A stretch of 64,000 nt of DNA from Pyrinomonadaceae bacterium (GTDB taxonomy: Bacteria > Acidobacteriota > Blastocatellia > Pyrinomonadales > Pyrinomonadaceae). Numbering within the stretch: position 1 is the stretch's first letter; each line of letters starts with the position of its first letter. The position numbers and the translations under genes were made by a program. Positions 7,342 through 64,000 of this stretch are shown here, in pieces. The stretch spans positions 6,193 through 70,192 of the forward strand of contig DASWRI010000044.1 in the NCBI GenBank assembly GCA_036403235.1, given 5' to 3'. The notes under the pieces are model-generated. The model was given only the letters and a program-made list of their open reading frames with translations, searched no databases and was not told where the DNA came from.

Positions 7342-7351
7342 AATTGTCCGC

Positions 7352-7383: not shown

Positions 7384-7557
7384 GGTTTTGTCGTTAAAAT
7401 TTGATTACGATTTGATTGATATTTTATTCGGGCAGTCGATACAAATAAGTTTTGCATCCAAGATTGGTTACAGGCGGAATTTATTCTAAAATTGATTTTC
7501 GGCTCGGTTCGGAAATCGGTGGAGTTGAAACGACGAATCCAAGCGACGCAGGCTGAT

Positions 7558-7980: not shown

Positions 7981-8099
7981 AACAGCGAATACAAATCACG
8001 AAAATATAGACAGGTTGTCTTTGACGACTTGAAACGGATTGCCGTCTCGAAAAACGGCAATTGTTGAAATACTGTTTTATAAATCAGGAGATAGAGAAG

Positions 8100-10076: not shown

Positions 10077-10121
10077 TATCGGATTAAAAAGCGTTTTCGT
10101 GAGGATGAGCAAACTGCTAAT

Positions 10122-10157
10122 AAAAAAAAGAGCGTCTTGATTGATGCTCTTTTTTTT
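10122..10157. terminator. bidirectional rho-independent terminator
   Basis: A8 tract, stem aagagcgtc/gatgctctt (one G-U pair), 6-nt loop, T8 tract. Lies between convergent genes. Confidence 0.65.
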
Positions 10158-10193
10158 GAACTTAGCTGTGCCGGATTATTGCTTCTGAACAGT

Positions 10194-12464: not shown

Positions 12465-12675
12465 AATGAAATCAGAATCCGAACGTTTGATAAGAAAAAG
12501 AATATTATCGAAGAGGTGGACGGCAATCTTAGCTAAACTGCCAAATTTAAGCTAACATGTTCCGGTAATTTATGTCAACGTGTTTTAACAATATTTGTTA
12601 TTTTTAACGTAAAATTTTTGTAAATTCTCAACTTTGATTTTTGCAGCGTAATTTTTTAGTCTAATTCTTTGTCAA

Positions 12676-12744
12676 AGTCTGGAGTCTCAAGTCTGAGGTC
12701 TTGAGTCAAAGATTTTCCGACTTGAGACTTCAGACTTGAGACTC
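12676..12744. repeat. heptamer-word inverted repeat, AGTCTNA family
   Basis: agtctggagtctcaagtctgaggtcttgagtc, then an 11-nt loop, then gacttgagacttcagacttgagactc. Ends 10 nt before ATG 12755. Confidence 0.8.
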
Positions 12745-12754
12745 GATTTTATTT

Positions 12755-13798: not shown

Positions 13799-13821
13799 AG
13801 ATTTGGTTTAAGAATCTAAAT

Positions 13822-13861
13822 AAAAAACTCTCCTACTTATTAAAAGGGAAGGGAGTTTTTT
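13822..13861 (+). terminator. rho-independent terminator candidate
   Basis: A-tract, aactctc ... gggagtt stem (one G-U pair), T6 tract. Confidence 0.45.
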
Positions 13862-14028
13862 GAGTTATGACGTCCGGCGCTTCTGTTTGATTTAGATACA
13901 GTCGCTTGTATCGATACAAAGCGACCGCTCCGACTTTTTTCTTTTATTTCCTTATATTTCCGTAGTTTCAGGCGAGGCACGAATTTTGCAAAAATACGAG
14001 TAAAATTTTGCAGTAAAGGTGCGACTAT

Positions 14029-15174
14029 ATGAAATCAAACAACACAGTAGAAAAACTTTTGAGCTTTGAGCCGGCCGGCTTTCCGTTCATTTCGCTTTAT
14101 TTGAATACCGAGCCGAATGAAAACGGGCAATTTAATTTTAATGTTTTCGCCAGAAAACAGTTGAGCGAATACGCTGATAATTTCGAGGCCGAATCGAGCG
14201 AGCGCGAAAGTTTTGACCGCGACGCCGAGCGCATTCTCGAATATCTCGGAAATATAAAGCCGACGACCAAGGGCGCGGCGATTTTTGCCTGCGCGGGCGC
14301 GGGCGATTTTTTTCTGACGCGCGAATTTAACGTGCCTTTTGAGGAAGACTACTTTTTCGTTTTCGACAAGCCGTATATTTTCCCGCTGACGCGCCTGCTT
14401 GAGCAAAACCCGATGTTTGCGGTAGTTTTGGCGGACACGAATGCGGCCAATATCTACACGTTCAAGCGCGGGCACGTTATCGACCAGGAAGAAATTCAAA
14501 ACGAAAAAACAAAGCGCGTTGCCGCCGGCGGCTGGTCGCAGCAGCGTTACCAGCGCAGCGTCGAAAACTTTCACCAGCAGCACGCCAAAGATATTGTCGA
14601 AGAGCTCGAAAAAATCGTGCGCGACGAACATCTCGACCAAATCGTTCTCTCCGGCGACGAGGCCGTCATCATTCCGCTTCTGCGCGCCGAGATGTCGAAA
14701 GAACTCGACGAAAAAGTAGTCGAAGTCTTGAGTCTCAACATAAATACGCCCGAGCACGAATTGATGGAAGCCGCCGAGCAGGCGATTTTCCAGAATCAAA
14801 CGCTAATCGATAAGGAAAAAGTCGACAATCTTTTCGAGCAGAATTACGACGACGGATTCGGCGTCACGGGCGTCGAAAAAACACTCGCGGCGCTCGCTAA
14901 CGGGCAGGTGCAGGAGCTTTATATCAGCGCCGATTTCGACAAAATCGAATACGACGCGAAACAGGTTTACAAAATTTTGAGCGCCTACGCGCCCGGCGAA
15001 GACGGCGAAGTTCCCGACATCCGCCGGCAGGGAAAGGTCGTCGACGAGCTGCTTCGCCGCGCCATCGAATCGGCCGACAGCATCAGATTTATCAAGGACG
15101 AAAATCTTCTGAGCGAAGTCGGCGGCGTCGGCGCGCTTTTAAGATACAAAATTGCCAAAGGACAAAACGTATGA
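14029..15174 (+). CDS. Vms1/ANKZF1-like (VLRF1 / bacterial eRF1-like) family protein
   Basis: 381 aa. The loop AAGGWSQQRYQR resembles the GG-x-SQ-x-R-x-x-R catalytic-Gln loop of the Vms1/eRF1-like fold. C-terminal region is eRF1 domain-3-like. Confidence 0.55.
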   Translation: MKSNNTVEKLLSFEPAGFPFISLYLNTEPNENGQFNFNVFARKQLSEYADNFEAESSERESFDRDAERILEYLGNIKPTTKGAAIFACAGAGDFFLTREFNVPFEEDYFFVFDKPYIFPLTRLLEQNPMFAVVLADTNAANIYTFKRGHVIDQEEIQNEKTKRVAAGGWSQQRYQRSVENFHQQHAKDIVEELEKIVRDEHLDQIVLSGDEAVIIPLLRAEMSKELDEKVVEVLSLNINTPEHELMEAAEQAIFQNQTLIDKEKVDNLFEQNYDDGFGVTGVEKTLAALANGQVQELYISADFDKIEYDAKQVYKILSAYAPGEDGEVPDIRRQGKVVDELLRRAIESADSIRFIKDENLLSEVGGVGALLRYKIAKGQNV

Positions 15175-16657: not shown

Positions 16658-18550
16658 ATGAAAAACTTCCGAGAAATATTAGACTCCGACGGTATTTTTG
16701 TTTTTGACGGCGCGGTCGGGACGCGTTTTTACGACAAGGGAATTTATATCAATCGCTCCTACGACGAGCTGAACCTGACCGCGCCCGACTTGGTGCGCGA
16801 AGTTCACGCCGAATATGTCAAAGCGGGCGCGGACATCATCGAAACCAATACTTTCGGCGCGACGCGTCACAAATTGCAGCAATACAGTCTCGAAAACAAA
16901 TTAAAGGAAATCAACATCGCGGGCGTGCGCATCGCGCGCGAAGCGGCTGGCGAAGACGTTTTTGTCGCCGGCGCGATTGGGCCGCTCGAACTCAGAATCG
17001 AGCCTTACGGCCCGACCTCGTTTGAAGAAGCGAAAGAGATGTTCAAGGAACAGGCCGCGGCGCTGCTCGAAGGCGAAATCGATTTGTTTGTGCTGGAAAC
17101 GTTTTCTGATTTGTCGGAAATCGAGCAGGCGATAAAAGCCGTCCGCGAATTGTCGGATTTGCCGATTTTCGCGCAGATGACGATTACGACCGAAGGCAAG
17201 ACGGTTTTCGGCGTGACGCCCGAAACTTTTACCAAAAAGCTCGATGAGCTCGGCGTCGATGTCATCGGCCTGAACTGCGGCGTCGGGCCGACGCATATTT
17301 TGACGACGCTCGAAAAAATGCGCGGCGCGACTACCAAATCGCTTTCCGCGCAGCCGAACGCCGGACTCCCGCGCGATGTGCAGGGACGGCAGTTTTATAT
17401 GTCTTCGCCCGAATACATGTCGAAATTTGCCAAGCGTTTTATCAAGGCGGGCGCAAAATTCGTCGGCGGCTGCTGCGGCACGACGCCGAAGCACACGAAA
17501 TTGATGGCCGACGCGGTTCGCGCCATTTCTCCGCGCGCGGCGAAGGCAACGGCAAAGCCCGTCATTTCGGCCAAAGTCAATGATTTAACTCCGGCCGACG
17601 TTCAGGTCGTTTCGCCCGAAGAGCGCTCGAAATGGTCACGGAAAATCGCGCGCGGCGAGTTTGTCACATCGGTCGAAGTTCTGCCGCCGAAAGGCTGCGA
17701 CGCGGCGAAAACTCTGGATTCAATCAAGCTTCTGGTCAATGCCGGGGTCGATGCGGTAAATATTCCCGACGGGCCGCGCGCGCAGACCAGAATGAGCGCG
17801 CAGGCGACCGCCGTCCTCGTCGAACAGCGGGTCGGCATCGAAGCCGTTCTGCATTACTGCTGCCGCGATAGAAATCTTCTGGGAATGATGTCCGACCTGC
17901 TCGGCGCGGCGGCGCTCGGGCTTCACAATCTTTTAATTATCACCGGCGACCCGCCGAAAATGGGGCCGTTTCCCGACGCGACCGCCGTTTTCGACATCGA
18001 TTCCATCGGCTTGACGAATATGGTCAACAAGTTAAATCACGGGCTCGATTTGGGGAACAATCCGATTGGCTGCCCGACCGCGTTTTCCATCGGCGTCGGC
18101 GTCAATCCGGGCGCGATAAATCTCGATGAGGAAATCCGCCGTTTTGAATGGAAAGTCGAAGCGGGCGCGGAATACGCCATCACGCAGCCGGTTTACGATA
18201 CCGAGCAATTAAGGAGCTTTTTGAAAAAAATCGAGCACGTACGCATCCCGATTGTCGCCGGAATTTTCCCGCTTGTTTCGATTCGCAACGCCGAATTTAT
18301 GCACAACGAAGTTCCGGGCGTCGTCATTACGCCGGAAATTCTGGACAGGATGAGAAAAGCGTCGGACGTTTCAAAAGAAGCTGCGCGCGAGGAAGGCATA
18401 AAAATCGCCCGCGAATCGCTGGTCGAGGTACGCGATTTGATTCAGGGCGTGCAGGTTTCCGCGCCGTTCGGCAACGTCAAATACGCGCTTCAGGTTTTTG
18501 ACGTGCTCGAAGAATTTAAGACGAGAAAAGAAGCGGCGGTCATTTCATAA
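16658..18550 (+). CDS. bifunctional homocysteine S-methyltransferase / 5,10-methylenetetrahydrofolate reductase
   Basis: N-terminal Hcy-binding domain with GGCCGTTP zinc motif. C-terminal MetF-like TIM barrel. 630 aa. Confidence 0.88.
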   Translation: MKNFREILDSDGIFVFDGAVGTRFYDKGIYINRSYDELNLTAPDLVREVHAEYVKAGADIIETNTFGATRHKLQQYSLENKLKEINIAGVRIAREAAGEDVFVAGAIGPLELRIEPYGPTSFEEAKEMFKEQAAALLEGEIDLFVLETFSDLSEIEQAIKAVRELSDLPIFAQMTITTEGKTVFGVTPETFTKKLDELGVDVIGLNCGVGPTHILTTLEKMRGATTKSLSAQPNAGLPRDVQGRQFYMSSPEYMSKFAKRFIKAGAKFVGGCCGTTPKHTKLMADAVRAISPRAAKATAKPVISAKVNDLTPADVQVVSPEERSKWSRKIARGEFVTSVEVLPPKGCDAAKTLDSIKLLVNAGVDAVNIPDGPRAQTRMSAQATAVLVEQRVGIEAVLHYCCRDRNLLGMMSDLLGAAALGLHNLLIITGDPPKMGPFPDATAVFDIDSIGLTNMVNKLNHGLDLGNNPIGCPTAFSIGVGVNPGAINLDEEIRRFEWKVEAGAEYAITQPVYDTEQLRSFLKKIEHVRIPIVAGIFPLVSIRNAEFMHNEVPGVVITPEILDRMRKASDVSKEAAREEGIKIARESLVEVRDLIQGVQVSAPFGNVKYALQVFDVLEEFKTRKEAAVIS

Positions 18551-52255: not shown

Positions 52256-53044
52256 TCAGAATCTCGTTTCCAAAAGCTTCTTCGCCTTTTCGACGCATTC
52301 TTTGTGTTCGAACGTATATTCGGGACCGGGCTTCATCTTTAAGATATATTCGAGCTGTTTTTTCGCATCGGCGTCGCGGCCGACCGCCAGATAAGCTTCT
52401 GCCAGATGCAAATAAATATAGGTGTTTTCCTTTTCGATTTCGAGAGCTTTTTCCAGATATTCGACCGCTTTTTCCGGCTTTCCGCCGGCGAGCATTCCGG
52501 CTTTCATCTCGACCTGCGCCAGCGCGTCGTAGGCGCTGGCGGCTTGATAATTAGGCTGGATTTCGATGACTTTGTTCATCTCGGAGCGAATCTCGTCGAT
52601 GGCTTTAATGCCGACCGTGACCGGGCTTCGCCGAGCCTGTTCGCCTAAATTAGCGCCGTACCAGAAGTGTCCGTCGGGTTTCTCGGGCTCCATTTTGGCG
52701 GCGATTTTTCCGGCCTGCACGCCGTCTTCAAAAGCCTTTTCGATTTCCTTTTCGTCCGGGCTATGTTTGCCGAGAAAAAAATTATATTTGGCGAATTTCC
52801 ATTCCGATTCGTAATTTCGAACGTCGGGATTACGCGTTCGGGCAAGTGTCTGAACGGCTTCGCGCAGTTTCGATAAATCGTCGCGCTGCTGGAAAAGCTC
52901 GTCGGCTTTGGCGATGGCGTCGGAGAAAAAAGTCGGTGTTATTTTCTGCTTAAAATCCTCAGTTACGCCTTTTGACGCGCACGCCGAAGCGAAAATCACG
53001 AAACATGCAATTGTAATAAAACGGTAAAATCTTATCCTTTTCAT
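52256..53044 (-). CDS. TPR-repeat lipoprotein
   Basis: Lipobox-like FASACAS after the signal peptide. TPR-like helices (AEAYLAVGRDADAKKQLEYILK). Confidence 0.7.
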   Translation of the reverse strand: MKRIRFYRFITIACFVIFASACASKGVTEDFKQKITPTFFSDAIAKADELFQQRDDLSKLREAVQTLARTRNPDVRNYESEWKFAKYNFFLGKHSPDEKEIEKAFEDGVQAGKIAAKMEPEKPDGHFWYGANLGEQARRSPVTVGIKAIDEIRSEMNKVIEIQPNYQAASAYDALAQVEMKAGMLAGGKPEKAVEYLEKALEIEKENTYIYLHLAEAYLAVGRDADAKKQLEYILKMKPGPEYTFEHKECVEKAKKLLETRF

Positions 53045-53132: not shown

Positions 53133-53807
53133 ATGAAAAAAGACGGGCAAGCGGCGGCATTTTACGATTTAGAAGGAACACTCGTGAGCACGAACCTCGT
53201 GCACACGCTCGGATTTTACGCGCGTCGCCAGCAGGGCTTATTCAAAACCATCAAAAAAAGCGCTTCGACGCTGGCCAAACTGCCGCTTTTCGGCGTCACG
53301 GATTTGTATTCGCGCAATGTTTTTAACGAGCTTTTTTTTCAGAGCTACAAAGGCGAATCGAATGACCGGCTACGCTATTTTTCGGAAGAATTGTTCGAAG
53401 ACGTTCTCAAACCCGCGATTTTCGACGGAACGCCCGAGCTTATCGCGCAGTCGAAAAAAATCGGGCAGCGGCAGGTCGTCATTACCGGCGCACTCGACTT
53501 TACGATTGAGCGCCTGATGGATTATCTCGGCATAGACGATTACGTCGCCAACCGGCTGGAATTCGTCAACGGCTACGCGACCGGCAGAATTTTGCCGCCC
53601 GTGCTGGCGTCGGCGACAAAAGCGAAATGGATACGCGAATACGCCGAGCGCGAAAATATAAATTTATCGGAATCTTACGCTTATTCCGATTCGATTTCCG
53701 ATTTGCCGATGCTCTCGATTGTCGGTCATCCGGTCGCGGTCAATCCGGATTTTCGTCTGAAACAAACTGCTTTGCAGCACGATTGGGCGATTTTGAATTT
53801 GAAGTAA
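53133..53807 (+). CDS. HAD-IB family hydrolase (SerB/phosphatase-like)
   Basis: FYDLEGTL motif I, cap helices, and YSDSISDLPML motif IV. Confidence 0.78.
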   Translation: MKKDGQAAAFYDLEGTLVSTNLVHTLGFYARRQQGLFKTIKKSASTLAKLPLFGVTDLYSRNVFNELFFQSYKGESNDRLRYFSEELFEDVLKPAIFDGTPELIAQSKKIGQRQVVITGALDFTIERLMDYLGIDDYVANRLEFVNGYATGRILPPVLASATKAKWIREYAERENINLSESYAYSDSISDLPMLSIVGHPVAVNPDFRLKQTALQHDWAILNLK

Positions 53808-53811
53808 AAAA

Positions 53812-54288
53812 ATGAATAGAGTTTTTTTCATAAATACTTTTTTAATAATTTGTTTTGGATTGTTAGCTACAAGTTGTTCACAAAATCGTGCTGAATCAAG
53901 CGATAAGTTAGTTGAAAGATTAAATTCGCAAATAAAATTGGGAAATTTCGAGCAGATTTACGTGGAAGCTGGCAGCACGGCAAAAAATCTTACTCTGAAA
54001 GAAGGATTTCTTAAAAAGATGATATCTGCCGTAAATAAGATGAAGGAAGTTGACGAATCCTTGTCTTGGCAAAAGGGGGAAACAGTTGTTTTATCGAATG
54101 CCGACATCGCCGCAGACCTTTATTTGGTTCACAGGAAAATTGAAAGGAACGGAAAGAAACTTGATATTAAGATTACAATTACATTAATCAATCAAGTGCC
54201 TAAATTTTTGGATTTATGCGTTTCGCCTTCTGAATTAACAACGGTTGAATCTGAAACATGCGTTACTAACGCTTCAAAGAAAATATAA
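53812..54288 (+). CDS. hypothetical lipoprotein in a low-GC segment
   Basis: Lipobox LLATSCS. 158 aa. Visibly AT-rich compared with neighbours. Confidence 0.55.
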   Translation: MNRVFFINTFLIICFGLLATSCSQNRAESSDKLVERLNSQIKLGNFEQIYVEAGSTAKNLTLKEGFLKKMISAVNKMKEVDESLSWQKGETVVLSNADIAADLYLVHRKIERNGKKLDIKITITLINQVPKFLDLCVSPSELTTVESETCVTNASKKI

Positions 54289-54304: not shown

Positions 54305-55906
54305 ATGGCTTTGCAATTACGCAGAAAAACACACGAATCAATCATCTATATCGATAAGGACAGCGCGCCGCGCATTATGCCGTTCGGCGAGGATTTTATT
54401 ATCGAAGACATTCCGGTCGGGACGCGCGTCATTTATCCGAATCCGCCGATAAAAGGTTTGCCGAACCGCGAGGCCGCGATTCGATACGCGGTCAATCATC
54501 CGATTGACGCGAAACCGCTTTACGCGCAGCTTGAGCCGGGAATGCGTGTGACGATTGCGATGGACGACATTTCGCTGCCGCTGCCGCCGATGGCTTTGCC
54601 CGATATGCGCCAGACGATGCTCGAAGTCGTTTTGGATATGTGTGCGGCGAACGGCGTCGACGACGTGCATTTGATTGTCGCCAATTCGCTTCACCGCAAA
54701 ATGACGGCCTGGGAAATGGAGCGAATGGTCGGCTCGACGATTTTCAACGAATTTTATCCCGAACGTTTTTACAATCACGACGCCGAGGACGACGAAAATT
54801 TAATCACGCTCGGACACACGCGCCACGACGAGCCGCTGCGCGTCAATCGCCGCGCCATCGAGAGCGATATTTTGATTTACATCAACATCAATCTCGTGCC
54901 GATGGACGGCGGGCACAAATCGGTCGCCGTCGGGCTTTGCGATTACGAATCTCTGCGCGCGCATCACGAGCCGCAGACTATTCTCGACTCGCATTCGTAT
55001 ATGGATCCGCCCGCGTCGGAATTGAATCACAAGGTCATACGGCTCGGAAAACTGGTTGACGAGCACTGCAACGTCTTTCACATCGAAACCGCGCTCAACA
55101 ACAAAATGTTTCCCGAAGGCTACGACATTTTGACGCGCAACGAGGACGAATTTTCGTTCGCCGACCGGATGAAATGGGAAGTTATGAAGCGTACGTTTTC
55201 AAAAATGCCGCGCGCCGCGCGCCGCAAAATGCTTCACGCGATTCCGGCGCAGTATGAATTAATCGCCTGTTACGCGGGCGAAACGGAAAAAGTCCACGAA
55301 AAGATTCTCGAAAAAAATTACCAGCAATACGAAATCCCGGTCAAAGGCCAGTGCGACATAATGATTACGGGCATTCCCGACATCTCGCCGTATAACGTCT
55401 ATTCTGCTTTGAATCCGCTGCTCGTGCAGGTAATGGCGCTCGGCTATCACTTCAATATGTTTCGCAACAAGCCTTTACTTCGGAAAGGCGGCGTGATGAT
55501 TATCACGCACCCGTGTTTTGACGAGTTCGACCATAATTTTCACCCGTCGTATATCGAATTTTTCCATCGTCTTCTGCCCGAATCGCGCGACGCGTTTTAT
55601 CTGCGCGAGAAATACGAGCGCGAGTTTGCGACCAATCCGGCCTACGTCGAGATGTACCGGCGCGGCAACGCCTATCACGGCGCGCACCCGTTTTTTATGT
55701 GGTACTGGGGCGAAAACGGTCGCCAGCACGTCGGCAAAGTCATCGTCGCCGGCGCGGAAAACGCGCACGTTCCCGAAATCTTGGGCTGGGAACGCGCCGA
55801 CAATCTGACCGAAGCTATTGCCATGGCACGCTCGTTTATGGGCAGAAACGCCGAGATTACGATGCTGCACCAGCCGATAATCGGGCTTTGCAATGTGACG
55901 GATTAG
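54305..55906 (+). CDS. LarA-like (DUF2088, nickel-pincer lactate-racemase-related) protein
   Basis: N-terminal block [14 protein letters not shown]...[11 protein letters not shown]...DGGHKSV resembles the LarA N-terminal domain. At 533 aa it is longer than canonical LarA. Confidence 0.6.
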
Positions 55907-55941: not shown

Positions 55942-56172
55942 ATGCAAAAGAAATTAACGATTACGATTGACGAGCGCGTTTACGAAGGTCTGCAAACGGT
56001 TGTCGGGCGCGGGAAAATCAGCCAGTTTATTGAGGTTTTGCTGCGTCCGCACGTTTTGAAACAGGATTTGGACGCAGCTTACAAGGAAATGTCTGAAGAC
56101 GAGGCGCGTGAAACCGAAGCGTTGGAATGGTCGGAAGCGACAATTGGAGACGTAAATAATGAAACGTGGTGA
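55942..56172 (+). CDS. ribbon-helix-helix-type antitoxin candidate
   Basis: 76 aa. KLTITIDERVYEGL beta-strand/helix start and an acidic C-terminal tail. Overlaps the toxin start by 14 nt. Confidence 0.6.
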   Translation: MQKKLTITIDERVYEGLQTVVGRGKISQFIEVLLRPHVLKQDLDAAYKEMSEDEARETEALEWSEATIGDVNNETW

Positions 56173-56479
56173 AGTCTGGTGGGTGAATTTCGAGCCGGCT
56201 ATCGGCGGCGAAATCAAAAAACAGCGTCCCGCCGTTATCCTGAGCAACGACGTTTCCAACAAATATCTCAACCGCGTTCAAGTCGTGCCGCTTTCGAGTC
56301 AAATTGACAAACTTTATCCGAGCGAGGCTTACGTCCAATTCGGCGGAAAACAGGCAAAAGCCTTAGCCGACCAACTGACAACCGTCAGCAAACAGCGTCT
56401 GCTAAATAAAGCCGGACATTTATCAAAAGCAGATGTTGAGCAAGTTGAAAGAGTAGTTAAGATACAGCTTGATTTATAA
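56159..56479 (+). CDS. mazF: MazF/PemK-family type II toxin endoribonuclease
   Basis: MKRGEVWWVNFEPAIGGEIKKQRPAVILSND...VVPLSS. 106 aa. Confidence 0.9.
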   Translation: MKRGEVWWVNFEPAIGGEIKKQRPAVILSNDVSNKYLNRVQVVPLSSQIDKLYPSEAYVQFGGKQAKALADQLTTVSKQRLLNKAGHLSKADVEQVERVVKIQLDL

Positions 56480-56549
56480 AAAGATGACGATACTTTATCT
56501 TACGTTAATTTGACAATAAAAGATTTGCATTGCTAGTGGGGAATTGATT

Positions 56550-57209
56550 ATGGATAGTTCAACAAAAATTATGCGGTTAGAAATAGATGGTCAATGGACT
56601 GCCGACGATATGATAAATTCAATTAAAGCAGTTCAAGATTTGTATAATCTAAGGCTAATTTTGCAATTTGAATATGAAGAATGGTTAGAATGGCGAGAGT
56701 TTTATCATGAATTAAAATTTTTTCCACCTTTTCGTAAAAGAATGCAAGCTAGATTATTTTTTGAAAGAGATAATTTCCCATCTTGTTCAACGATAATCCC
56801 ACTAAACGAAGATGAGCTTAGTCGAATTTCCGAGTTATGTTATCCGAATGAAATTTTAAATGTTCGCCGCATAAAATATGGTTCTAAGGGAATTAAAGAC
56901 TTAGCGGGAATTGGCGAGATAATCGGTCATGTTAAGGATTTCATTCTTGAACTAATCCATATTAGAAAAGACAAAGAAAAACGCAGCCTCGAAAATGAAG
57001 AAAGGAAACTAAAGAATCAACACTTACAACTAGAAAATGCCCAAAAATATGTTGAGTTAGCTAAAAGTATTGGCTTAAAAAAAACTGAAATTAGGCAATT
57101 GGTTAAATTAGCTGATAACAAACAGGAAAAATTAGTTGATTTAATTGATGAAGGGAAAATATACGGAGTTAGATTATTAAATTCTAACGAAGAAAATTTA
57201 GACATATAA
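56550..57209 (+). CDS. hypothetical protein in a low-GC islet (C-terminal coiled coil)
   Basis: 219 aa from ATG 56550. No motif recognised. Strongly AT-rich coding sequence. Confidence 0.55.
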   Translation: MDSSTKIMRLEIDGQWTADDMINSIKAVQDLYNLRLILQFEYEEWLEWREFYHELKFFPPFRKRMQARLFFERDNFPSCSTIIPLNEDELSRISELCYPNEILNVRRIKYGSKGIKDLAGIGEIIGHVKDFILELIHIRKDKEKRSLENEERKLKNQHLQLENAQKYVELAKSIGLKKTEIRQLVKLADNKQEKLVDLIDEGKIYGVRLLNSNEENLDI

Positions 57210-57222: not shown

Positions 57223-60200
57223 ATGAAATTATCACCAACCCAAATTTTTAAAGGTAAAAAGATTTTCTTTATCGGCGGCACGGGCTTTGTCGGTAAGGTT
57301 ACGCTTTCGATGCTGCTCAATAATTTTCCCGACATCGGGCGAGTTTATGCGACCGTCAGAGCGCGAGATGCGAAAGAATCGGAAATTCGTTTTTGGACGA
57401 GCATCGTCACAAGCCCGACGTTTGACCCTTTAAGAGAAAAATACGGCGACAAATTTGAAAATTTTATCCGCGAAAAAGTCGTGCCGGTGAACGGCGACGT
57501 CGGCAACGAATTTCTCGGTTTAGATGAAAAGGAAGCGAAAAAGTTAATGCGCGACTGCGACATTATCATCAACGGCGCGGGCAACGTGACGTTTAATCCG
57601 CCGCTCGAAAGCGCCTTGAGAACAAACGTCGTCGGCTCAAACAATATTTTGAAAATGGCGCGCCTGATGAAGCGCCCCGCGCTCGTGCACGTTTCGACCT
57701 GTTTTGTCGCCGGTAAACGGAGCGGCGCGATTTGGGAAAACGAGCCGGTCGTCGGGTATTTCCCGAGAAAAAACGAGCTCGTCGGCACCACCTTCGACGT
57801 CAACAAGGAAATCGAAGACTGCGCCCGCCTGTCCGAACAGGCGCGTCAGGAAGCCGACGACGCGATGCAGATTGCGAAATTTCGCGAGCAGGCGAGAACG
57901 CGTTTCGAGGAAGAAGGACGCGACCCGGACGACGAGACGGAATTGAAATCGGCGATTTTCCGCGAGCGCAAGATGTGGATTCGTGAGCGGACGACCGAAC
58001 TCGGTGCGGAGCGCGCCGAATATTGGGGCTGGACGAATATCTACACTTATTCGAAATCTCTGGCCGAGCAAATCATCGCGCAGCAGGACGACGTCGTCAA
58101 GATTCTCATCCGGCCGTCGATTGTCGAATCTTCGCAAAGTTACCCGTTTCCGGGCTGGAACGAAGGCTTTACGACGACTGCGCCGTTGATTTTAATCGCG
58201 CTGCGCGGCCAGCCGATTATTCCGGTCAACGAAAAGCTCGTTCTCGACATAATTCCGGTCGATATGGTCTCGGGCGCAATCCTCGGCGCGGCCATGAACG
58301 CGCTCGTCGACGACACTCCGCCGCTCGTTTTTCAGGCCTGCTCGGGCGATTCGAATCCGAACGATATGGAGCGCATCGTCGGTCTCGTCGGTCTTTACAA
58401 ACGCGAGCATTTCAAGGAAAAGGAAACCGGAAATAAATTGGTAAATAACGTCGCCGCGATGATTGAAGCCTCGCCCGTAACGCAGAAAACCTACGAAAGA
58501 GTGTCCGCGCCGATGCTCAACAAACTGGCTAAGCGCGCCAACGTTTTGCTCGATAGGGCCAAGCCGACGTGGGCCGGCGGGCGGCTCTCAAACATCGTTT
58601 CCGATTTGCAGAAATCGGTCGAAAATTTCGAGCGGACGACGCAGGAGACGATGGACGCGTTCTCGATGTTCAAGCCGTTTATGATTGACAACGAATATCT
58701 GTATCGCGCCGACAATCTGCGCGCGCTGATGTCGCTCGTCAAGGAAAAGGAAAAAGATTTGCTGCCGTGGTATCCCGAGCGGCTCGATTGGTACGACTAC
58801 TGGCTCAACGTCCATTTTCCCGGAATGAGAAAATGGGTTTTGCCGCAGCTCGAAGAAGATTTAAAAATTCAGGAGCGCCGCTCTTACACATACAAGGATT
58901 TGCTCGATTTGTTCGACACTTCGGTCAAACGCTTTTCGACGCGCGTCGCGATGCGCATCGAGCGCAACGGGCGCAAAGAGCAGTACACTTTTGAAGACGT
59001 CAGGGAACTGACTTTGCGCGCCGCCGGATTTTTCGCCGCGAGCGGCATCAAGCAGAACGACCGCGTCATTTTGTTTTCAAACAATATGCCCGAATGGGGC
59101 TTGTCGTATTTCGGCATTTTGAAAACCGGCGCGACCGCGATTCCGATTGACCCGGCCAGCTCGATTGACGAAATCATAAATTTTGCGCGCGCGGGCGAGG
59201 CTTCGGCGATTGTTATTTCCACGAAATTAGCCGGCGAAAATCCCGAATTGGCCAAAAAACTGAAGGAAGCAAAACTGAAGTTAAACGTCTGGACGTTTGA
59301 AGAAGTTTTCGAGATGCACCCGGAAATCGAGGAAGCCAAACGCATCGCGCTGCTGCCCGGTAAAATTTTGTCGAATTCGGTCGCGTCCCTGATTTTTACT
59401 TCGGGCACGACCGGAACGCCGAAAGCCGTCATGCTCTCGCACAAAAATTTCGTCAATATGATTTCGATGTTGTCGAGCGTTTTGGAAATGGACATCACCG
59501 ACGGCGTTTTGTCGGTTCTGCCGATGCATCACACGTTTGAGTTCAGCGCCGGATTTTTGACGCCTTTTTCAAACGGGACGCAGATTACGTATCTCGACGA
59601 GCTTTCGGCGGAAGAGCTTTCGCGCTCAATCGAAAACGGCCACGTGACGGGAATGGTCGGCGTTCCGGCGCTCTGGGAAATGCTCCATCGCCGGATAAAG
59701 ACGCGTCTCAGGGAGCGCGGCGACTGGTTTGCCGATTTTGCCGACAGCGTCATCGACTTCAACGCCTGGATACGCGACAACACGCCGTTTAATCTCGGCC
59801 CGATTATCTTTTTCCCGATTCATCAGGGAATGGGCGGGCGGATGCGCTATCTGATTTCGGGCGGCTCGGCTTTGAGCGAAAAAGTCCAGAAAGACTTGCA
59901 CGGATTAGGATTTACCGTTCTTGAAGGTTACGGTTTGACCGAATCTTCGCCCGTCCTGACGGTCGCGCGTCCGGGAAACAAATTGTTAAGGGGAAGCGTC
60001 GGCAAGCCTCTGCCCGGAATCGAGGTAAAAATCGACTCGCCCGATGAAAACGGCGTCGGTGAAGTTCTCGCGCGCGGGCAGAACATAATGCTCGGCTATT
60101 ACAATAACGAGGAAGCGACCGAAGCCGTCCTTCATGACCGCTGGTTGAAAACGGGCGATTTGGGCAAACTCGACGAAGACGGAAATCTATACATCGTCGG

Positions 60201-61641
60201 GCGTTCAAAGGACGTTATTATCGATTCGAACGGCAAAAACATATACCCGGACGAAATCGAGGATTTATACGGAAAGTCCGGTTTTATCAAGGAATTATCA
60301 ATCGTCGGCCTGGCGGACGATGACGGCGGCGAGAAAATCGCGGCGCTCGTCGTGCCCGATTACGAGCACGACATCGCCTTGAGCCGAAGCGATACGAACA
60401 AAAAAGTCGAAGAACATTTCCGCGAGGTTTCCGCCGCGCTGCCGTTTTTCAAACGCGTCAAGGTTTTGCACCTGACGCCGTTTGAGCTGCCGCGGACGGC
60501 GACCAGAAAAGTTAAACGTCCCGAAGTCGTCGAGATGCTTCAATCGCTCGAAGAACGGGCGAAAAAGAAAACAAAGGCGGTCGCCGAATCAAAAGGCGAC
60601 GACAATGTTCTGTGGCTTCGCAAAATCGTCGCGACCGTTTCAAACCGTCCGCTTTCCGACATCGCCGTCGAAGACAAATTAGCCGATTTGGGCTTTGACA
60701 GCTTGATGTTTGTCGAGCTTCAAGCGGCGGTCGAAGACGCCGGCGGGCGCGTCGCGTCGCCCGATACTTTGAACGAAGTGCAGACCGTTCGCGAGCTTTT
60801 AACGGCGGTTCAGCGCGTCGATACGCGCAAGAAAATCGTCGACGAGCCGCGCGCCGAGGAGAAAAAGGAAGAGGAAATTTTTATTCCGTCGATTGTCCGC
60901 AAGCTCGGAAACTCAATCGTCGATTTTGCGCAGGAGACGCTTTACAACTCGGTTTTGAACACATCGATTGAAGGCGAGTCGAACGTTCCGGTTCACGCCA
61001 ATTTTATCGTCGCGTCAAATCACACGTCGCATCTCGATATGGGGTTGGTGAAACGTGCGCTCGGAAAGGACGTCGCCGAGCAGACGGTCGCGGTCGCGGC
61101 GGCCGATTACTGGTTCGACACGAAATACAAGCGCGCGTATATGAACAATTTCACGACGCTGATTCCGATTGAGCGTTCGGGAAGTTTGCGCCAATCTTTG
61201 CGGCACGTCACACAAATTTTGAACGAAGGCTACAACACTTTGATTTTTCCCGAAGGCGGACGCCAGACATCCGGCGAGATTGCCGAATTCAAACCGATTA
61301 TTGGCTATCTCGCATTAAACGAAAAAGTCGGGATTCTGCCGGTTTATCTGTGGGGAACATACGAAGCGTTTCCGAAAGGAATGACGATTCCGCCGCGCTC
61401 GAGCATCGGCGCTAACATCGGCGCGAAAGTCGGAAGATTTTTGGAATACGAACAGCTTCTGGAGATGACCAAAGGCGTGCCGAACACCGAGGCGTATCGC
61501 CTGATTGCCGCGCGCGTCCAGCACGAAATCGAAAATATGCGCGACGGTCGGCGCGACAAATTCGACGTCGCGGCGGTTCGCAAACGTTGGCGCGCCGAAC
61601 GCAGAAAATCGCGCAAGCAGGCGCCTGTAATTGAAGATTAA
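57223..61641 (+). CDS. four-module lipid enzyme: fatty-acyl reductase / acyl-AMP ligase / ACP / 1-acylglycerol-3-phosphate acyltransferase (ElbD-like)
   Basis: GGTGFVGK (57274-57297) and YTYSK. TSGTTGTPK (59398-59424). LGFDSLM with Ser codon at 60700-60702. NHTSHLD (61018-61038). FPEGGR (61246-61263). Confidence 0.85.
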   Translation: MKLSPTQIFKGKKIFFIGGTGFVGKVTLSMLLNNFPDIGRVYATVRARDAKESEIRFWTSIVTSPTFDPLREKYGDKFENFIREKVVPVNGDVGNEFLGLDEKEAKKLMRDCDIIINGAGNVTFNPPLESALRTNVVGSNNILKMARLMKRPALVHVSTCFVAGKRSGAIWENEPVVGYFPRKNELVGTTFDVNKEIEDCARLSEQARQEADDAMQIAKFREQARTRFEEEGRDPDDETELKSAIFRERKMWIRERTTELGAERAEYWGWTNIYTYSKSLAEQIIAQQDDVVKILIRPSIVESSQSYPFPGWNEGFTTTAPLILIALRGQPIIPVNEKLVLDIIPVDMVSGAILGAAMNALVDDTPPLVFQACSGDSNPNDMERIVGLVGLYKREHFKEKETGNKLVNNVAAMIEASPVTQKTYERVSAPMLNKLAKRANVLLDRAKPTWAGGRLSNIVSDLQKSVENFERTTQETMDAFSMFKPFMIDNEYLYRADNLRALMSLVKEKEKDLLPWYPERLDWYDYWLNVHFPGMRKWVLPQLEEDLKIQERRSYTYKDLLDLFDTSVKRFSTRVAMRIERNGRKEQYTFEDVRELTLRAAGFFAASGIKQNDRVILFSNNMPEWGLSYFGILKTGATAIPIDPASSIDEIINFARAGEASAIVISTKLAGENPELAKKLKEAKLKLNVWTFEEVFEMHPEIEEAKRIALLPGKILSNSVASLIFTSGTTGTPKAVMLSHKNFVNMISMLSSVLEMDITDGVLSVLPMHHTFEFSAGFLTPFSNGTQITYLDELSAEELSRSIENGHVTGMVGVPALWEMLHRRIKTRLRERGDWFADFADSVIDFNAWIRDNTPFNLGPIIFFPIHQGMGGRMRYLISGGSALSEKVQKDLHGLGFTVLEGYGLTESSPVLTVARPGNKLLRGSVGKPLPGIEVKIDSPDENGVGEVLARGQNIMLGYYNNEEATEAVLHDRWLKTGDLGKLDEDGNLYIVGRSKDVIIDSNGKNIYPDEIEDLYGKSGFIKELSIVGLADDDGGEKIAALVVPDYEHDIALSRSDTNKKVEEHFREVSAALPFFKRVKVLHLTPFELPRTATRKVKRPEVVEMLQSLEERAKKKTKAVAESKGDDNVLWLRKIVATVSNRPLSDIAVEDKLADLGFDSLMFVELQAAVEDAGGRVASPDTLNEVQTVRELLTAVQRVDTRKKIVDEPRAEEKKEEEIFIPSIVRKLGNSIVDFAQETLYNSVLNTSIEGESNVPVHANFIVASNHTSHLDMGLVKRALGKDVAEQTVAVAAADYWFDTKYKRAYMNNFTTLIPIERSGSLRQSLRHVTQILNEGYNTLIFPEGGRQTSGEIAEFKPIIGYLALNEKVGILPVYLWGTYEAFPKGMTIPPRSSIGANIGAKVGRFLEYEQLLEMTKGVPNTEAYRLIAARVQHEIENMRDGRRDKFDVAAVRKRWRAERRKSRKQAPVIED

Positions 61642-61645: not shown

Positions 61646-63010
61646 ATGACGAAATCTCTAAAAGTAAATTTTTTGGTGTCCGCATTTTTGATTTTCGCGC
61701 TTGTTTCGTCTTCGTTCGGTCAGGCGAAAGTCGATAAAAAACAAATGACGGCCGAGGTCAAAGCGGAATTTCTGCACGCCTGGAACGGGTACAAAAAATA
61801 CGCGTGGGGACACGACGATTTGAAGCCTTTGAGCAAAACTTACAAGGATTGGTACGGCGAGACGCTCCTGATGACGCCGGTCGACGCGCTCGACTCGCTC
61901 GTTTTGCTCGGCTTCAAAACGGAAGCCGATAAAACACGCAAATACATCACGGACAATCTTTCGTTCGACAAAGACGTTTACGTCCAGAATTTTGAAATCA
62001 CGATTCGTCTGCTCGGCGGTTTGCTCTCAAGCTATCAAATGACGGGCGACAAAAAACTGCTCGCTCTGGCCGAAGATTTGGGCAACCGGCTTTTGCCCGT
62101 TTTCGCGTCGCCGACCGGAATTCCGTATCGCTACGTCAATCTCAAAACCGGAAAAGTAAAAGGCGAAGTGACAAATCCGGCCGAAGCGGGAACATTGCTG
62201 ATTGAATTCGGGACTTTGAGCAAGCTGACGAAAAAGCCTGTATTTTACGATAAAGCGAAACGCGCTCTGGTCGAAACTTACAATCGCCGCTCGCCGCTCG
62301 GCCTGGTCGGAACGCGCATCAACGTCGAGACCGGAAAATGGACGAATACCGACTCGCACGTCAGCGCCGAGATTGATTCGTATTACGAGTATCTTTTGAA
62401 GTGCGCGATTCTTTTCGACGATAAAGACTGTCGCAAAATGTGGGAAGAAGGCATTGCGGCGATAAATAAAAATCTGGCCGACGAAGTGCGCGGCGAGCTT
62501 TGGTACGGCCACGCCGATATGACTTCGGGAAAGCGAACCGCGACCGTGTCCGGCGCGCTCGACGCGTTTTTCCCGGCGATTCTGGCCTTGTCGGGCGATT
62601 TGGCGCGTGCCAAACGCCTCCAGGATTCAAGCTTCAAAATGTGGACGAAGTATGACATCGAGCCCGAAGAATACGATTATCAGAAACAGGAAATCGGCGA
62701 CGCGAGCTATCATCTGCGGCCGGAAATCGTCGAATCGACGTATTATCTTTATCAATACACTTCGGACGAAAAATATCTGCAAATGGGCAAAACTTTTTTC
62801 GACGATTTTGTAAAATACTGTAAGACGGACGACGCATACGCCGTCTTAAAAAGCGTCGTCACCAAAGAAAAAGCGGACACGATGCACAGTTTTCTGTTTG
62901 CGGAAACTTTCAAATATTATTATTTATTATTTGCGCCGCCGCGGGCTTTGGACTTTAAGAAAGTTGTTTTTAATACCGAAGCGCATCCGGTAAAAAAGAC
63001 CTGGAAATAA
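61646..63010 (+). CDS. secreted glycoside hydrolase family 47 (class I alpha-mannosidase) homologue
   Basis: Signal peptide. AWxGYKKYAWGHDDLKP and FEITIRLLGGLLSSY blocks are characteristic of GH47. Starts 4 nt after the upstream stop. Confidence 0.78.
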   Translation: MTKSLKVNFLVSAFLIFALVSSSFGQAKVDKKQMTAEVKAEFLHAWNGYKKYAWGHDDLKPLSKTYKDWYGETLLMTPVDALDSLVLLGFKTEADKTRKYITDNLSFDKDVYVQNFEITIRLLGGLLSSYQMTGDKKLLALAEDLGNRLLPVFASPTGIPYRYVNLKTGKVKGEVTNPAEAGTLLIEFGTLSKLTKKPVFYDKAKRALVETYNRRSPLGLVGTRINVETGKWTNTDSHVSAEIDSYYEYLLKCAILFDDKDCRKMWEEGIAAINKNLADEVRGELWYGHADMTSGKRTATVSGALDAFFPAILALSGDLARAKRLQDSSFKMWTKYDIEPEEYDYQKQEIGDASYHLRPEIVESTYYLYQYTSDEKYLQMGKTFFDDFVKYCKTDDAYAVLKSVVTKEKADTMHSFLFAETFKYYYLLFAPPRALDFKKVVFNTEAHPVKKTWK

Positions 63011-63011: not shown

Positions 63012-64000
63012 ATGGCAGCTAGAAAAACAAAAGCATTGGCGAAAATTGAAAAGAAAATCCTAATCACCGGCGGGACGGGATTTTTAGGAACGCACATTGT
63101 CCGGCAGTTTCTGGAAAATGGCGAGAAAAATCTGCGCGTGATGGCATCGAGCGTTCCCGTCTGGATGCGAGACGCGGGCGTTGAAGCGGCGGAAGGCTCG
63201 GTGACGAACCGGGAAGACGTGGCCAATGCAGTCAAAAACGCTTCGGCCGTTTATCATCTTGCGGGCCGGGTTTCGCGCGACAACGAAGACGCCGCATTGA
63301 TGAACAAAATTCACGTCGAAGGCACGAGAATTTTATGCGAGGCGGCGAAGGAATCGGGCGTGAAAACGTTTGTTTTAGCTTCGTCGAGCGGCACGATTGC
63401 CGTTTCCGAAAACGAGGACATTCTCGACGAAACTTACCCGACGCCCGTCGAAATCATCTCGCGCTGGGCGTATTACGCTTCGAAATATTATCAGGAAAGA
63501 ACCGCTCTCGAAAATTTCGACGGCAAAGGCTTAAAGCTCGTGATTTTGAATCCGTCGCTGCTTTTGGGAACGGGCGACGAGCGTTTAAGCTCGACCAAAG
63601 TAATTCTGGATTTTCTCGCGCGAAAAATTCCCTACACGCCGTCGGGCGGGCTTTCGTTTGTCGATGCGCGCGACGCGGCGGCTGCTTTTATTAATTCTCT
63701 CGAAAAGGGAAGCCACCGCGAAAAGTACTTACTCGGCGCGGCGAATATGACTTTCGCGCAGTTTTTCGGGCGGCTCGCACGTCTTTCGGGCGTTTCCGCT
63801 CCCGTCTTGCGCGTACCGAAACGGCTGGCGATGGCGGGCGCGAGCTTGATTGATTCGGTCTTTAAGAACTGGAATAAACCGTCGCCGATTCAGCCGAAAG
63901 AAGTCGAGCAGGCCGAATATTTCTGGTATTTCGACTCGGCAAAAGCCGCAGAAGAACTCGATTTTGCGCCGCGCGATGCGCAGGAAACTCTGCAGGACAC
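63012..64000 (+). CDS. NAD-dependent epimerase/dehydratase (extended SDR), 3-prime end outside window
   Basis: ILITGGTGFLGTH Rossmann motif and YYASK (YxxxK). ATG lies 1 nt after the GH47 stop. The frame is open to the window end and is not in the ORF track. Confidence 0.8.
   Translation, partial: MAARKTKALAKIEKKILITGGTGFLGTHIVRQFLENGEKNLRVMASSVPVWMRDAGVEAAEGSVTNREDVANAVKNASAVYHLAGRVSRDNEDAALMNKIHVEGTRILCEAAKESGVKTFVLASSSGTIAVSENEDILDETYPTPVEIISRWAYYASKYYQERTALENFDGKGLKLVILNPSLLLGTGDERLSSTKVILDFLARKIPYTPSGGLSFVDARDAAAAFINSLEKGSHREKYLLGAANMTFAQFFGRLARLSGVSAPVLRVPKRLAMAGASLIDSVFKNWNKPSPIQPKEVEQAEYFWYFDSAKAAEELDFAPRDAQETLQD

Follow-up and report, generated by a model that had tools for sequence, protein, structure and literature searches.

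A multidomain ElbD-type protein and an elb-like gene cluster of probable ether-lipid function in a Pyrinomonadaceae genome

Does an acidobacterium carry the multifunctional protein that myxobacteria need for ether-linked membrane lipids, and what would such a protein do there? The question is raised by a 64,000-nucleotide stretch of an uncultured Pyrinomonadaceae genome (GCA_036403235.1, contig DASWRI010000044.1; hereafter the window), in which one forward-strand ORF (57223..61641, ATG start; mechanical ORF list and translation) encodes a polypeptide of 1472 aa. A sequence-only reading had recognised in this single chain a reductase domain, an AMP-ligase domain, a carrier domain and an acyltransferase domain of the PlsC type, and had likened it to ElbD of Myxococcus xanthus (MXAN_1528, UniProt Q1DC43), a product of the elbA-elbE operon (Lorenzen et al. 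2014, as cited in PMC9131029).

Domain architecture of the 1472-aa protein

Pfam annotation returned all of the proposed domains in that order, with curated cut-offs passed by every domain except Sterile. The N-terminal fatty acyl reductase Rossmann domain (NAD_binding_4; 57274..58281, aa 18-353, E=1.3e-52) contains GGTGFVGK (57274-57297) and the Y274/K278 pair of YTYSK (58042-58056), and matched the known structure of a fatty acyl-CoA reductase (7eoz, E=1.5e-51), in which YVFTK lines up with YTYSK. The C-terminal part of 7eoz aligned with the region of the reductase-associated Sterile domain (PF03015; 58618..58842, aa 466-540, E=3.4e-8), which at 34.0 bits lies under its cut-off of 35.4. It is followed by a predicted adenylate-forming fatty acid ligase (58912..60510), made up of AMP-binding (aa 564-960, E=9e-71) and AMP-binding_C (aa 1011-1096, E=1e-6), with top NCBIfam matches to long-chain fatty acid-CoA ligases, all below equivalog cut-offs. 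Its motifs include TSGTTGTPK (59398-59424), EGYGLTE, GDLG...GR, PRTATRKVKR and GDLGKLDEDGNLYIVGR (60154-60204). The acyl carrier domain (PP-binding; 60613..60807, aa 1131-1195, E=2e-12) bears LGFDSLM (60688-60708) and the predicted phosphopantetheine attachment site Ser1160 (codon 60700-60702). Finally, the PlsC/AGPAT-type acyltransferase domain (60967..61350, aa 1249-1376, E=1.3e-18) contains H1267-x4-D1272 within NHTSHLD (61018-61038) and FPEGGR (residues 1342-1347, 61246-61263); these aligned to NHQSLMD and FPEGTR, respectively, of Thermotoga maritima PlsC (5kym, E=3e-15). Every motif quoted in the sequence-only reading occurs once, exactly where it had been placed.

The catalytic residues (Tyr/Lys of YxxxK, carrier Ser, HX4D and FPEGxR) were invariant or nearly so among 24 diverse homologues: S1160, D1272, E1344 and R1347 showed no substitution, while Y274, K278 and H1267 were at least 90% conserved. 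Published work describes M. xanthus ElbD as an N-terminal FAR1-like domain followed by ACS, ACP and an AGPAT-like acyltransferase (PMC9131029), which is the same set in the same order as in the window protein. Comparison with myxobacterial ElbD homologues gave collinear, end-to-end alignments at 43% identity to proteins of Anaeromyxobacter sp. Fw109-5, a member of the myxobacterial suborder of M. xanthus, and Haliangium ochraceum; both species are cultured, and the likeness to the characterised M. xanthus ElbD is an indirect one. Taken as sequence comparisons, these results support the interpretation of the protein as ElbD.

Genes flanking elbD and their recurrence

The genes around elbD had been thought not to fit an elb cluster, a view that does not hold. 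Downstream, the SDR of the NAD-dependent epimerase/dehydratase family (63012..64000, + strand, 345 aa) is the ElbE counterpart; its final 16 codons and stop lie outside the window, and the complete gene is found in locus L001 (15790-16827), with Epimerase and 3Beta_HSD Pfam matches. Upstream on the same strand lie an ElbB-like HAD-IB family hydrolase (53133..53807, 224 aa; Pfam HAD E=2.2e-30; NCBIfam TIGR01490 HAD-IB, 125 bits, above its cut-off of 98.3) and an ElbC-like protein of the LarA superfamily (54305..55906, 533 aa; Lar_N/DUF2088, E=4.8e-36). By these assignments, the window holds a complete predicted elbB-elbC-elbD-elbE set.

Several further forward-strand genes interrupt this set. 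Between elbB and elbC, an ORF of 158 aa (53812..54288; 116 aa as called in the ENA record) had no match in Pfam or PADLOC and no counterpart in the other loci. Between elbC and elbD lies a putative antitoxin gene (55942..56172, 76 aa; called in L001 and L002, with a weak VapB_antitox match only), which was not seen at the corresponding junction of the other loci compared. It overlaps the start of a MazF/PemK-type toxin gene (56159..56479, 106 aa), annotated as PemK_toxin in the database record and matching NCBIfam MazF below cut-off (E=9.5e-13). Immediately 5' of elbD, a non-conserved ORF of 221 aa (56544..57209) yielded a marginal PADLOC match only, none in Pfam or NCBIfam, and no counterpart in other loci. 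The gene between elbD and elbE encodes a GH47 alpha-mannosidase-family protein (61646..63010, ATG at 61646 after the elbD stop; Glyco_hydro_47 E=7.6e-120) with a hydrophobic signal-like segment at its N-terminus; a GH47 gene takes the same place in L003 and is absent from L006, L007, L013 and all Myxococcota loci. The GH47 gene, the MazEF-like pair and the two uncharacterised ORFs are lineage-specific inserts; of the named neighbours, all but GH47 and the toxin-antitoxin pair belong to the elb cluster. A promoter and terminator scan gave no more sites than in shuffled sequence.

Related loci of Acidobacteriota and Myxococcota, 12 in number and taken from GTDB and metagenome sequences, were compared with the window. 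In all 12, elbD is immediately preceded by the Lar_N gene; a HAD gene was found in 10 (upstream of Lar_N in most loci) and an SDR gene likewise in 10. These and elbD are the sole gene families common to the loci. The order elbB-elbC-elbD-elbE recurs in both phyla. The Anaeromyxobacter genome (CP000769.1) has its ElbD homologue in the block Epimerase-HAD-Lar_N-ElbD-Epimerase, the elbA-E layout known from M. xanthus. Identities between the window and this block are 52% for HAD, 60% for the Lar_N protein encoded between HAD and ElbD, and 48% for SDR; the ElbE-like SDR is 40% identical to the product of the gene 3' of elbD in H. ochraceum. The window shares with the M. xanthus operon the HAD (ElbB), ElbC and NAD-dependent epimerase/dehydratase (ElbE) flanks, but belongs to an acidobacterium rather than a myxobacterium, lacks an elbA-like gene upstream, and is broken up by the inserts described above.

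ElbC as a LarA-like protein

ElbC is labelled as being of "unknown function" in a review (PMC9131029). The window protein scored 805 bits (cut-off 740) against NCBIfam NF052592, 'NPN-dependent hydroxyacid isomerase, LarAH14/15/16 family', and its best match among solved structures was the LarA-like NPN enzyme 9q2u (E=1.2e-33). Among 12 orthologues, no substitution occurs at D87/D88, H130, K205 or H220/H221. Sequence and structure matches thus place ElbC in the LarA (nickel-pincer nucleotide) superfamily, with the predicted cofactor-binding residues retained, an assignment that may be novel. With groups 14/15/16 of the LarA superfamily and with the single-histidine LarA-like enzymes (PDB 9q2u, 9q3j; PMC12611868) it has in common the Lar_N domain, a size of about 500-530 aa, the conserved Asp, catalytic His, NPN-tethering Lys and the His-His after that Lys, as well as loss of the second catalytic His, which is replaced by Asn in 9q2u and corresponds to Val198 in ElbC. 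Unlike those enzymes, ElbC is surrounded by lipid genes and not carbohydrate genes.

Its place in the cluster corresponds to that of AGPS in the second ether-lipid operon of M. xanthus, MXAN_1676-1675-1674, which encodes AGPS, a FAR-GNPAT fusion and an NAD epimerase. That operon resembles elb in setting a reductase-acyltransferase fusion beside an NAD-dependent epimerase-family gene, but its fusion is without ligase and carrier domains, and where it has AGPS the elb type has the LarA-like ElbC and a HAD gene.

Proposed role in ether-lipid synthesis

In M. xanthus, loss of elbD leads to a strong drop in alkyl and vinyl ether lipids; in vitro, only the ACS and ACP activities of ElbD were shown, in that adenylation and carrier loading were demonstrated, while reductase-derived alcohols and acyltransferase activity both went undetected (PMC9131029). 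By analogy, the ligase domain of the window protein would adenylate a long-chain fatty acid, probably iso-branched, and attach it through a thioester bond to the phosphopantetheine carried by Ser1160. The NAD(P)H-dependent reductase may then convert one carrier-bound acyl group to a fatty aldehyde or alcohol, and the PlsC-type domain may move another to a glycerol-phosphate or DHAP acceptor, so that a single polypeptide would supply both partners of the ether-forming exchange, a task that falls to FAR1 and GNPAT in animals. ElbC might carry out the ether-forming step, ElbE a reduction and ElbB a phosphate-ester step. The peroxisomal entry steps in animals employ FAR1, GNPAT, AGPS and alkyl-DHAP reductase; shared with the window are a FAR1-like reductase and a glycerol-phosphate-type acyltransferase, giving an alcohol and acyl-glycerone or glycerol phosphate, together with an SDR partner. 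In the window, however, reductase and acyltransferase are fused with ligase and carrier, and there is no AGPS homologue in the cluster, its position being held by the LarA-family protein.

Other explanations were weighed against this role. The fatty alcohols or aldehydes made by the enzyme could go into lipids without ether bonds, such as wax esters or other neutral lipids, its acyltransferase domain then serving esterification and not an ether pathway: the reductase is of the male-sterility type that supplies wax-ester alcohols in other organisms, ether formation by ElbD in vitro is so far unreported (PMC9131029), and homologues occur where ether lipids have gone undetected, as in Pontiella species. 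We consider this unlikely, given that the acyltransferase is of the PlsC/AGPAT type with HX4D and not of the wax synthase/DGAT type, that homologues of elbB, elbC and elbE stay linked to the gene, as they are in the myxobacterial locus whose ether-lipid role is validated by genetics, and that alkyl glycerol ethers are abundant in subdivision-4 Acidobacteria. Phospholipid repair, in which a fatty acid loaded onto the protein's own carrier would re-acylate lysophospholipids and the reductase would be accessory or inactive, is suggested by partial similarity to the NCBIfam models of acyl-[ACP]--phospholipid O-acyltransferase (Aas), PRK08633 and PRK06814. These scores fall far below cut-off (212 versus 1221 bits and 154 versus 1349) and come from the ligase part alone. 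In Aas the acyltransferase comes first and there is no carrier domain, an order different from that of ElbD-type proteins, which moreover retain the Rossmann motif and Tyr/Lys pair family-wide; we hold this reading to be very improbable.

Just as little weight falls on the reading of the protein as an NRPS-like carboxylic-acid-reductase module from a cluster for secondary metabolites, even though adenylation, carrier and reductase domains are all present and elb-like loci are picked up by genome-mining tools as biosynthetic gene clusters. A FAR-type reductase (NAD_binding_4 plus Sterile) stands at the N-terminus, where such a module would have a C-terminal thioester reductase behind the carrier; the best matches of the ligase are fatty-acid ligases; and the conserved surroundings include no genes for condensation, ketosynthase or tailoring functions. 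Split reductase and ligase ORFs are known in some Poribacteria and soil Acidobacteria, which could make the long ORF an assembly or frameshift artefact joining separate genes. Yet the 1472-aa protein is on record in identical form from three sources (NCBI, JGI and ENA) and from two contigs with different names, and its architecture is shared by more than 120 homologues that are ≥84% identical to it, so the fusion is no assembly artefact; hundreds of homologues of ~1470 aa with the full domain set, and at least 50 divergent clusters of full-length homologues across phyla, leave this explanation with next to no probability.

The ether-lipid role also agrees with the lineage. The identical protein is assigned by NCBI to a Pyrinomonadaceae bacterium, and elb clusters have been reported from subdivision-4 Acidobacteria (Sinninghe Damsté et al. 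2018, as cited in PMC10087280, PMC11868695 and bioRxiv 10.1101/2022.04.21.487849), bearing out the subdivision-4 connection made in the sequence-only reading. As these citing works present them, the reported clusters share with ours the group, the gene set and a proposed tie to glycerol ethers of iso-C15, iso-C17 and iso-diabolic acid; the window differs in coming from the genome of an uncultured organism. Because such clusters were already reported in subdivision 4, the present one is a sound but expected find. The literature explicitly reports no demonstrated function for any acidobacterial ElbD. In the type species Pyrinomonas methylaliphatogenes, ether and membrane-spanning lipids exceed 40%, and glyceryl ethers of iso-C15, iso-C17 and iso-diabolic acid are among its lipids. 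We conclude that the ORF is probably the Pyrinomonadaceae orthologue of ElbD within a complete elbB-E cluster, and that it most likely serves to make membrane lipids of the 1-O-alkyl glycerol ether type by an aerobic route; as no CarF-type desaturase is encoded within the window, alkyl rather than vinyl ethers would be expected.

Domain architecture and catalytic residues of ElbD

The ORF at 57223–61641 (+) opens with an ATG and encodes 1472 aa, uninterrupted in translation, and the seven motifs quoted from it in the sequence-only reading were all found, once each and at exactly the positions given there. The four modules which that reading had placed on one polypeptide were recovered by Pfam in the order fatty acyl reductase (FAR), AMP ligase, carrier and acyltransferase, as NAD_binding_4 (male-sterility type fatty acyl reductase, aa 18–353, E = 1.3e-52), Sterile, the FAR C-terminal domain (PF03015, aa 466–540, 34.0 bits, cut-off 35.4), AMP-binding (aa 564–960, E = 9e-71), AMP-binding_C (aa 1011–1096), PP-binding (aa 1131–1195, E = 2e-12), and Acyltransferase (aa 1249–1376, E = 1.3e-18). 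E-values as low as these rule out chance for the domain assignments. The fusion itself is genuine and not an assembly artefact, since NCBI, JGI, and ENA all have an identical protein on record, from two contigs that bear different names, and more than 120 homologues, 84–92% identical and of the same length and architecture, were among the matches listed in a protein search, the listed matches all being Pyrinomonadaceae-like.

Comparison with solved structures placed the catalytic residues. The N-terminal domain aligned with the fatty acyl-CoA reductase 7eoz (E = 1.5e-51, YTYSK opposite YVFTK) in three stretches, the C-terminal (Sterile) domain among them, so that both parts of a male-sterility FAR (PF07993 and PF03015) are present: NAD_binding_4 with its Tyr/Lys pair, followed by a Sterile domain 1.4 bits under its cut-off. 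The C-terminal domain aligned with Thermotoga maritima PlsC (5kym, E = 3e-15), with NHTSHLD opposite NHQSLMD and FPEGGR opposite FPEGTR, and carries the HX4D dyad and FPEGxR block of the PlsC/AGPAT family (PF01553). Catalytic residues were intact in all four modules (GxxGxxG and YxxxK; adenylation core; ACP Ser; HX4D and FPEGxR). When 24 full-length homologues, 27–52% identical to the window protein, were aligned, S1160, D1272, E1344, and R1347 were invariant, as were G880, G881, E907, D979, R994, K996, and R1099 of the adenylation core, while Y274, K278, and H1267 were conserved in at least 90%. No module is missing, and none of the residues on whose loss the earlier reading would have been abandoned (HxxxxD, ACP Ser, YxxxK) is lost on alignment. 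The reductase also contains a charged segment of ~75 residues (~aa 175–252, window 57745–57978), which is without counterpart in the plant-type FAR 7eoz and is found in the Haliangium ochraceum and Anaeromyxobacter homologues as well.

Other multidomain enzymes combining some of these activities were considered. An NRPS-like carboxylic acid reductase (CAR, A-T-R) is very unlikely, as the reductase of the window protein is N-terminal and of FAR type and its C-terminal domain is an acyltransferase; CAR structures did match, only weakly (E = 1e-4 to 1e-5). The bifunctional Aas (acyl-ACP synthetase/2-acyl-GPE acyltransferase) is likewise very unlikely, the scores for both NCBIfam equivalogs falling far short of their cut-offs (PRK08633/PRK06814, 212 vs 1221 and 154 vs 1349 bits).

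In Myxococcus xanthus, ElbD (Q1DC43) is described as a FAR1-like N-terminal domain followed by ACS, ACP, and an AGPAT-like acyltransferase (PMC9131029). The sequence-only reading had been uncertain whether the domain order would match; setting our Pfam coordinates against this description, we find the same order in the window protein. M. xanthus ElbD itself was compared by described domain order, and two cultured myxobacterial homologues served as sequence references: H. ochraceum P0123 (43% identity over 1517 aligned positions) and Anaeromyxobacter sp. Fw109-5 P0526 (CP000769.1; 43% over 1473 positions), both alignments spanning all four domains. A genome scan had no Myxococcus among the matches listed; those listed for a profile of Myxococcota homologues were mostly Kofleriaceae, with H. 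ochraceum besides, and a search from a high-GC representative had Anaeromyxobacter and Persicimonas among those listed. Three proteins picked by composition as myxobacterial representatives were discarded, P0314 for lacking the reductase domain and having an unrelated context, and P0126 and P0146 as metagenome/MAG proteins with only elbD and an SDR gene. Domain order, catalytic residues, gene neighbours, and the 43% full-length identity to two myxobacterial homologues together support the identification as ElbD.

The elb cluster and its inserted genes

The view that the neighbouring genes are unlike those of the elb cluster proved wrong. In M. xanthus, the genes on either side of elbD are elbC ("unknown function") and elbE (NAD-dependent epimerase/dehydratase); elbB codes for a HAD-like phosphohydrolase and elbA for a further epimerase/dehydratase (PMC9131029). 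The window holds counterparts of three of these: upstream of elbD lie a HAD-IB hydrolase gene (elbB, 53133–53807; Pfam HAD E = 2.2e-30, TIGR01490 over its cut-off) and a gene for a 533-aa Lar_N protein (elbC, 54305–55906), and downstream an SDR gene (elbE, from 63012), which runs 49 bases past the window end and was read whole (345 aa) on the same contig from ENA and JGI. The ElbD homologue of Anaeromyxobacter sp. Fw109-5 sits in an Epimerase-HAD-Lar_N-ElbD-Epimerase block, the elbA–E layout given for M. xanthus in PMC9131029, and identity between its proteins and those of the window is 52% for HAD, 60% for Lar_N, and 48% for SDR.

Conservation of this arrangement was assessed across 12 related loci: four from Acidobacteriota (L003, L006, L007, L013), seven counted as Myxococcota (L008, L010, L011, L012, L018, L019, L021) from the labels Myxococcales, Bradymonadaceae, Polyangiaceae, Kofleriaceae or Deltaproteobacteria, and one (L009) labelled only Proteobacteria. 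A Lar_N gene immediately preceded elbD in every one of the 12, and HAD and SDR genes were each present in 10. Two loci end within the Lar_N gene or shortly before it, one ends inside elbD, and one lacks an SDR in the 3 kb that follow elbD. The more distant L091 (ElbD 33% identical) likewise has the full HAD-Lar_N-ElbD-SDR block. In an all-against-all ORF comparison, the only families common to the loci were the four elb genes, besides an upstream TPR gene shared by three acidobacterial loci. This TPR/TAtT-like lipoprotein gene (52256–53044, (-)) is divergent and upstream of elbB, its position being kept in the window, L003, and L013 and not in Myxococcota. A fifth conserved partner was dropped, as the 168-aa ORF after the window elbE and a 168-aa ORF beside the SDR gene in locus L004 are not similar. 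H. ochraceum has adjacent elbD and elbE and is without elbB and elbC; such a pair alone has been reported for some myxobacteria (PMC9131029). A promoter/terminator scan gave sites no more numerous than in shuffled sequence.

The elb genes of the window are separated by a 158-aa ORF (53812–54288), a putative antitoxin with a MazF/PemK-type toxin (55942–56479), a 221-aa ORF (56544–57209), and, between elbD and elbE, a GH47 gene (61646–63010), none of which is a conserved cluster member; PADLOC gave no meaningful match to the small ORFs inserted in the window. In the close relative L003 (ElbD 87% identical), the same junctions carry different inserts, namely a DNA methylase with a 335-aa ORF (7974–9999), a MazE/PemK pair (14458–15020), a fatty-acid desaturase, a GH47 gene, and a PIN pair (17792–18348). 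Judging by these two loci, small mobile modules land at the junctions between elb genes. The window GH47 protein (class I alpha-mannosidase type) has an N-terminal hydrophobic segment, and its gene abuts both elbD and elbE; it recurs at the same position in L003 (16404–17756) and is absent from L006, L007, and L013, from more distant Pyrinomonadaceae or other Acidobacteriota. We found no link between the GH47 gene and lipid synthesis. The L003 desaturase (PF00487, 15378–16211), between elbD and GH47, is without counterpart in the window, and implies no vinyl-ether role because it is not of the CarF/TMEM189 type.

A second cluster type accompanies ElbD homologues that are 29–30% identical, in L017 (Acidobacteriota, 7064–14176) and L020 (Phycisphaerae, 7154–15132). 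Here the context is different: the order is a lipid-kinase-like (DAGK_cat/YegS_C) or PlsC gene, ElbD, HAD, and a zinc alcohol dehydrogenase, and neither Lar_N nor SDR is present. The window is of the canonical elbB–E type and not of this one, and its locus is a complete elbB–E cluster with lineage-specific inserts. As a separate observation, all four elb proteins of L008 (5706–13330, a MAG labelled Myxococcales, GC 67%) are 50–67% identical to the acidobacterial ones and nearer to them than those of other Myxococcota loci, a closeness that may stem from horizontal transfer or from wrong labelling of the bin.

ElbC and the LarA superfamily

Within the cluster, ElbC (54305–55906) was the protein with the highest conservation (53–90% identity to the window copy). 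It passes the NCBIfam equivalog NF052592 ("NPN-dependent hydroxyacid isomerase, LarAH14/15/16 family"), scoring 805 bits where the cut-off is 740. Its nearest solved structures, 9q2u (E = 1.2e-33) and 9q3j (E = 2.2e-28), are single-histidine LarA-like nickel-pincer enzymes (PMC12611868). In the alignment with 9q2u, Asp88 corresponds to the ribose-binding Asp73, His130 to the catalytic His115, and Lys205 to Lys195, which tethers the nickel-pincer nucleotide (NPN), whereas Val198 stands where the second catalytic residue would be, the second catalytic His being absent. A His-His pair at 220/221 lies 15–16 residues past Lys205, the spacing of the nickel-binding His of LarA, which would make 220/221 its equivalent in ElbC. 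In PMC12611868 the nickel-coordinating His of the 9q2u protein is numbered His221, which lies outside the residues aligned to ElbC and leaves this one assignment tentative. Across 12 orthologues, which come from two phyla, the mapped residues were invariant. With the curated model passed and the NPN-binding Asp/Lys/His and catalytic His kept, ElbC is, as judged from its sequence, a LarA-superfamily protein.

According to the LarA literature, groups 14 and 15 are without the second histidine, and a group-14 enzyme was inactive on the hydroxy acids tested. In the literature searched, we found no report tying DUF2088/LarA to ether lipids, and a 2026 sponge preprint mentions neither LarA nor a racemase. 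By eye, no obvious larB, larC or larE was seen among window 1–39600 ORFs 220 aa or longer, a weak test because the cofactor genes may lie anywhere in the genome.

Probable role in ether-lipid synthesis and a candidate for the ether-forming step

An M. xanthus elbD mutant has strongly lowered alkyl and vinyl ether lipids and lacks an iso-C15 aldehyde that is present in the wild type; in vitro, ACS and ACP activities of ElbD were confirmed, and neither products of the reductase nor acyltransferase activity could be detected (PMC9131029). By homology, the ligase of the window ElbD would charge Ser1160 with a long-chain fatty acid, the FAR domain would reduce a carrier-bound acyl group to aldehyde or alcohol, and the PlsC-type domain would pass a carrier-bound acyl group to a glycerol phosphate or DHAP acceptor, so that both partners of an ether-forming exchange may be supplied by one protein.

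Pyrinomonas, the type genus of Pyrinomonadaceae, belongs to Acidobacteria subdivision 4, and in Pyrinomonas methylaliphatogenes ether and membrane-spanning lipids make up >40%, including glyceryl ethers of iso-C15, iso-C17, and iso-diabolic acid. The link to subdivision 4 suggested by the sequence-only reading is borne out in papers that credit the finding of the elb operon in subdivision-4 genomes to Sinninghe Damsté et al. 2018 (cited via PMC10087280, PMC11868695, and bioRxiv 10.1101/2022.04.21.487849). The ethers of P. methylaliphatogenes and these operon reports, together with homology, support a putative ether-lipid role for the window ElbD. Ether lipids were not detected in Pontiella, in which ElbD homologues are present. 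As elb clusters have already been reported for subdivision-4 Acidobacteria, the window locus is not a new kind of system; it is a further complete and clean instance, from the group of Acidobacteria in which alkyl ethers are most abundant.

The other ether-lipid operon of M. xanthus (MXAN_1676-1675-1674) has a FAR-acyltransferase fusion and an NAD epimerase beside AGPS (PMC9131029). In the elb operon, it is ElbC that stands beside the corresponding fusion (ElbD) and epimerase (ElbE). ElbC holding the place of AGPS suggests that it may carry out the ether-forming step. That ElbC is the enzyme still missing from the elb pathway of aerobic bacteria, the one that forms the ether bond, is a speculative proposal, which we consider unlikely to be correct. 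Under this proposal, ElbC with its nickel-pincer nucleotide would borrow the C2 hydride of 1-acyl-glycerol-3-phosphate, the product of the ElbD acyltransferase domain; in the transient acyl-DHAP, the acyl group would be swapped for a fatty alcohol from the ElbD reductase domain by AGPS-like chemistry, and the hydride would be given back to yield 1-O-alkyl-glycerol-3-phosphate. Such a function would fit the tight ElbC-ElbD linkage across two phyla, the AGPS-equivalent place in the operon, and the predicted cofactor residues with one catalytic His, the second His of racemisation being absent.

We regard the LarA identity of ElbC as the item most worth attention at this locus, a LarA-type ElbC being a concrete candidate for the missing ether-forming step. 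If the proposal were true, it would provide the first lipid substrate for the orphan LarA groups. How aerobic bacteria make the alkyl ether bond matters in turn for the "lipid divide" that separates bacteria from archaea and for where branched GDGTs, which serve as palaeoclimate proxies, come from.
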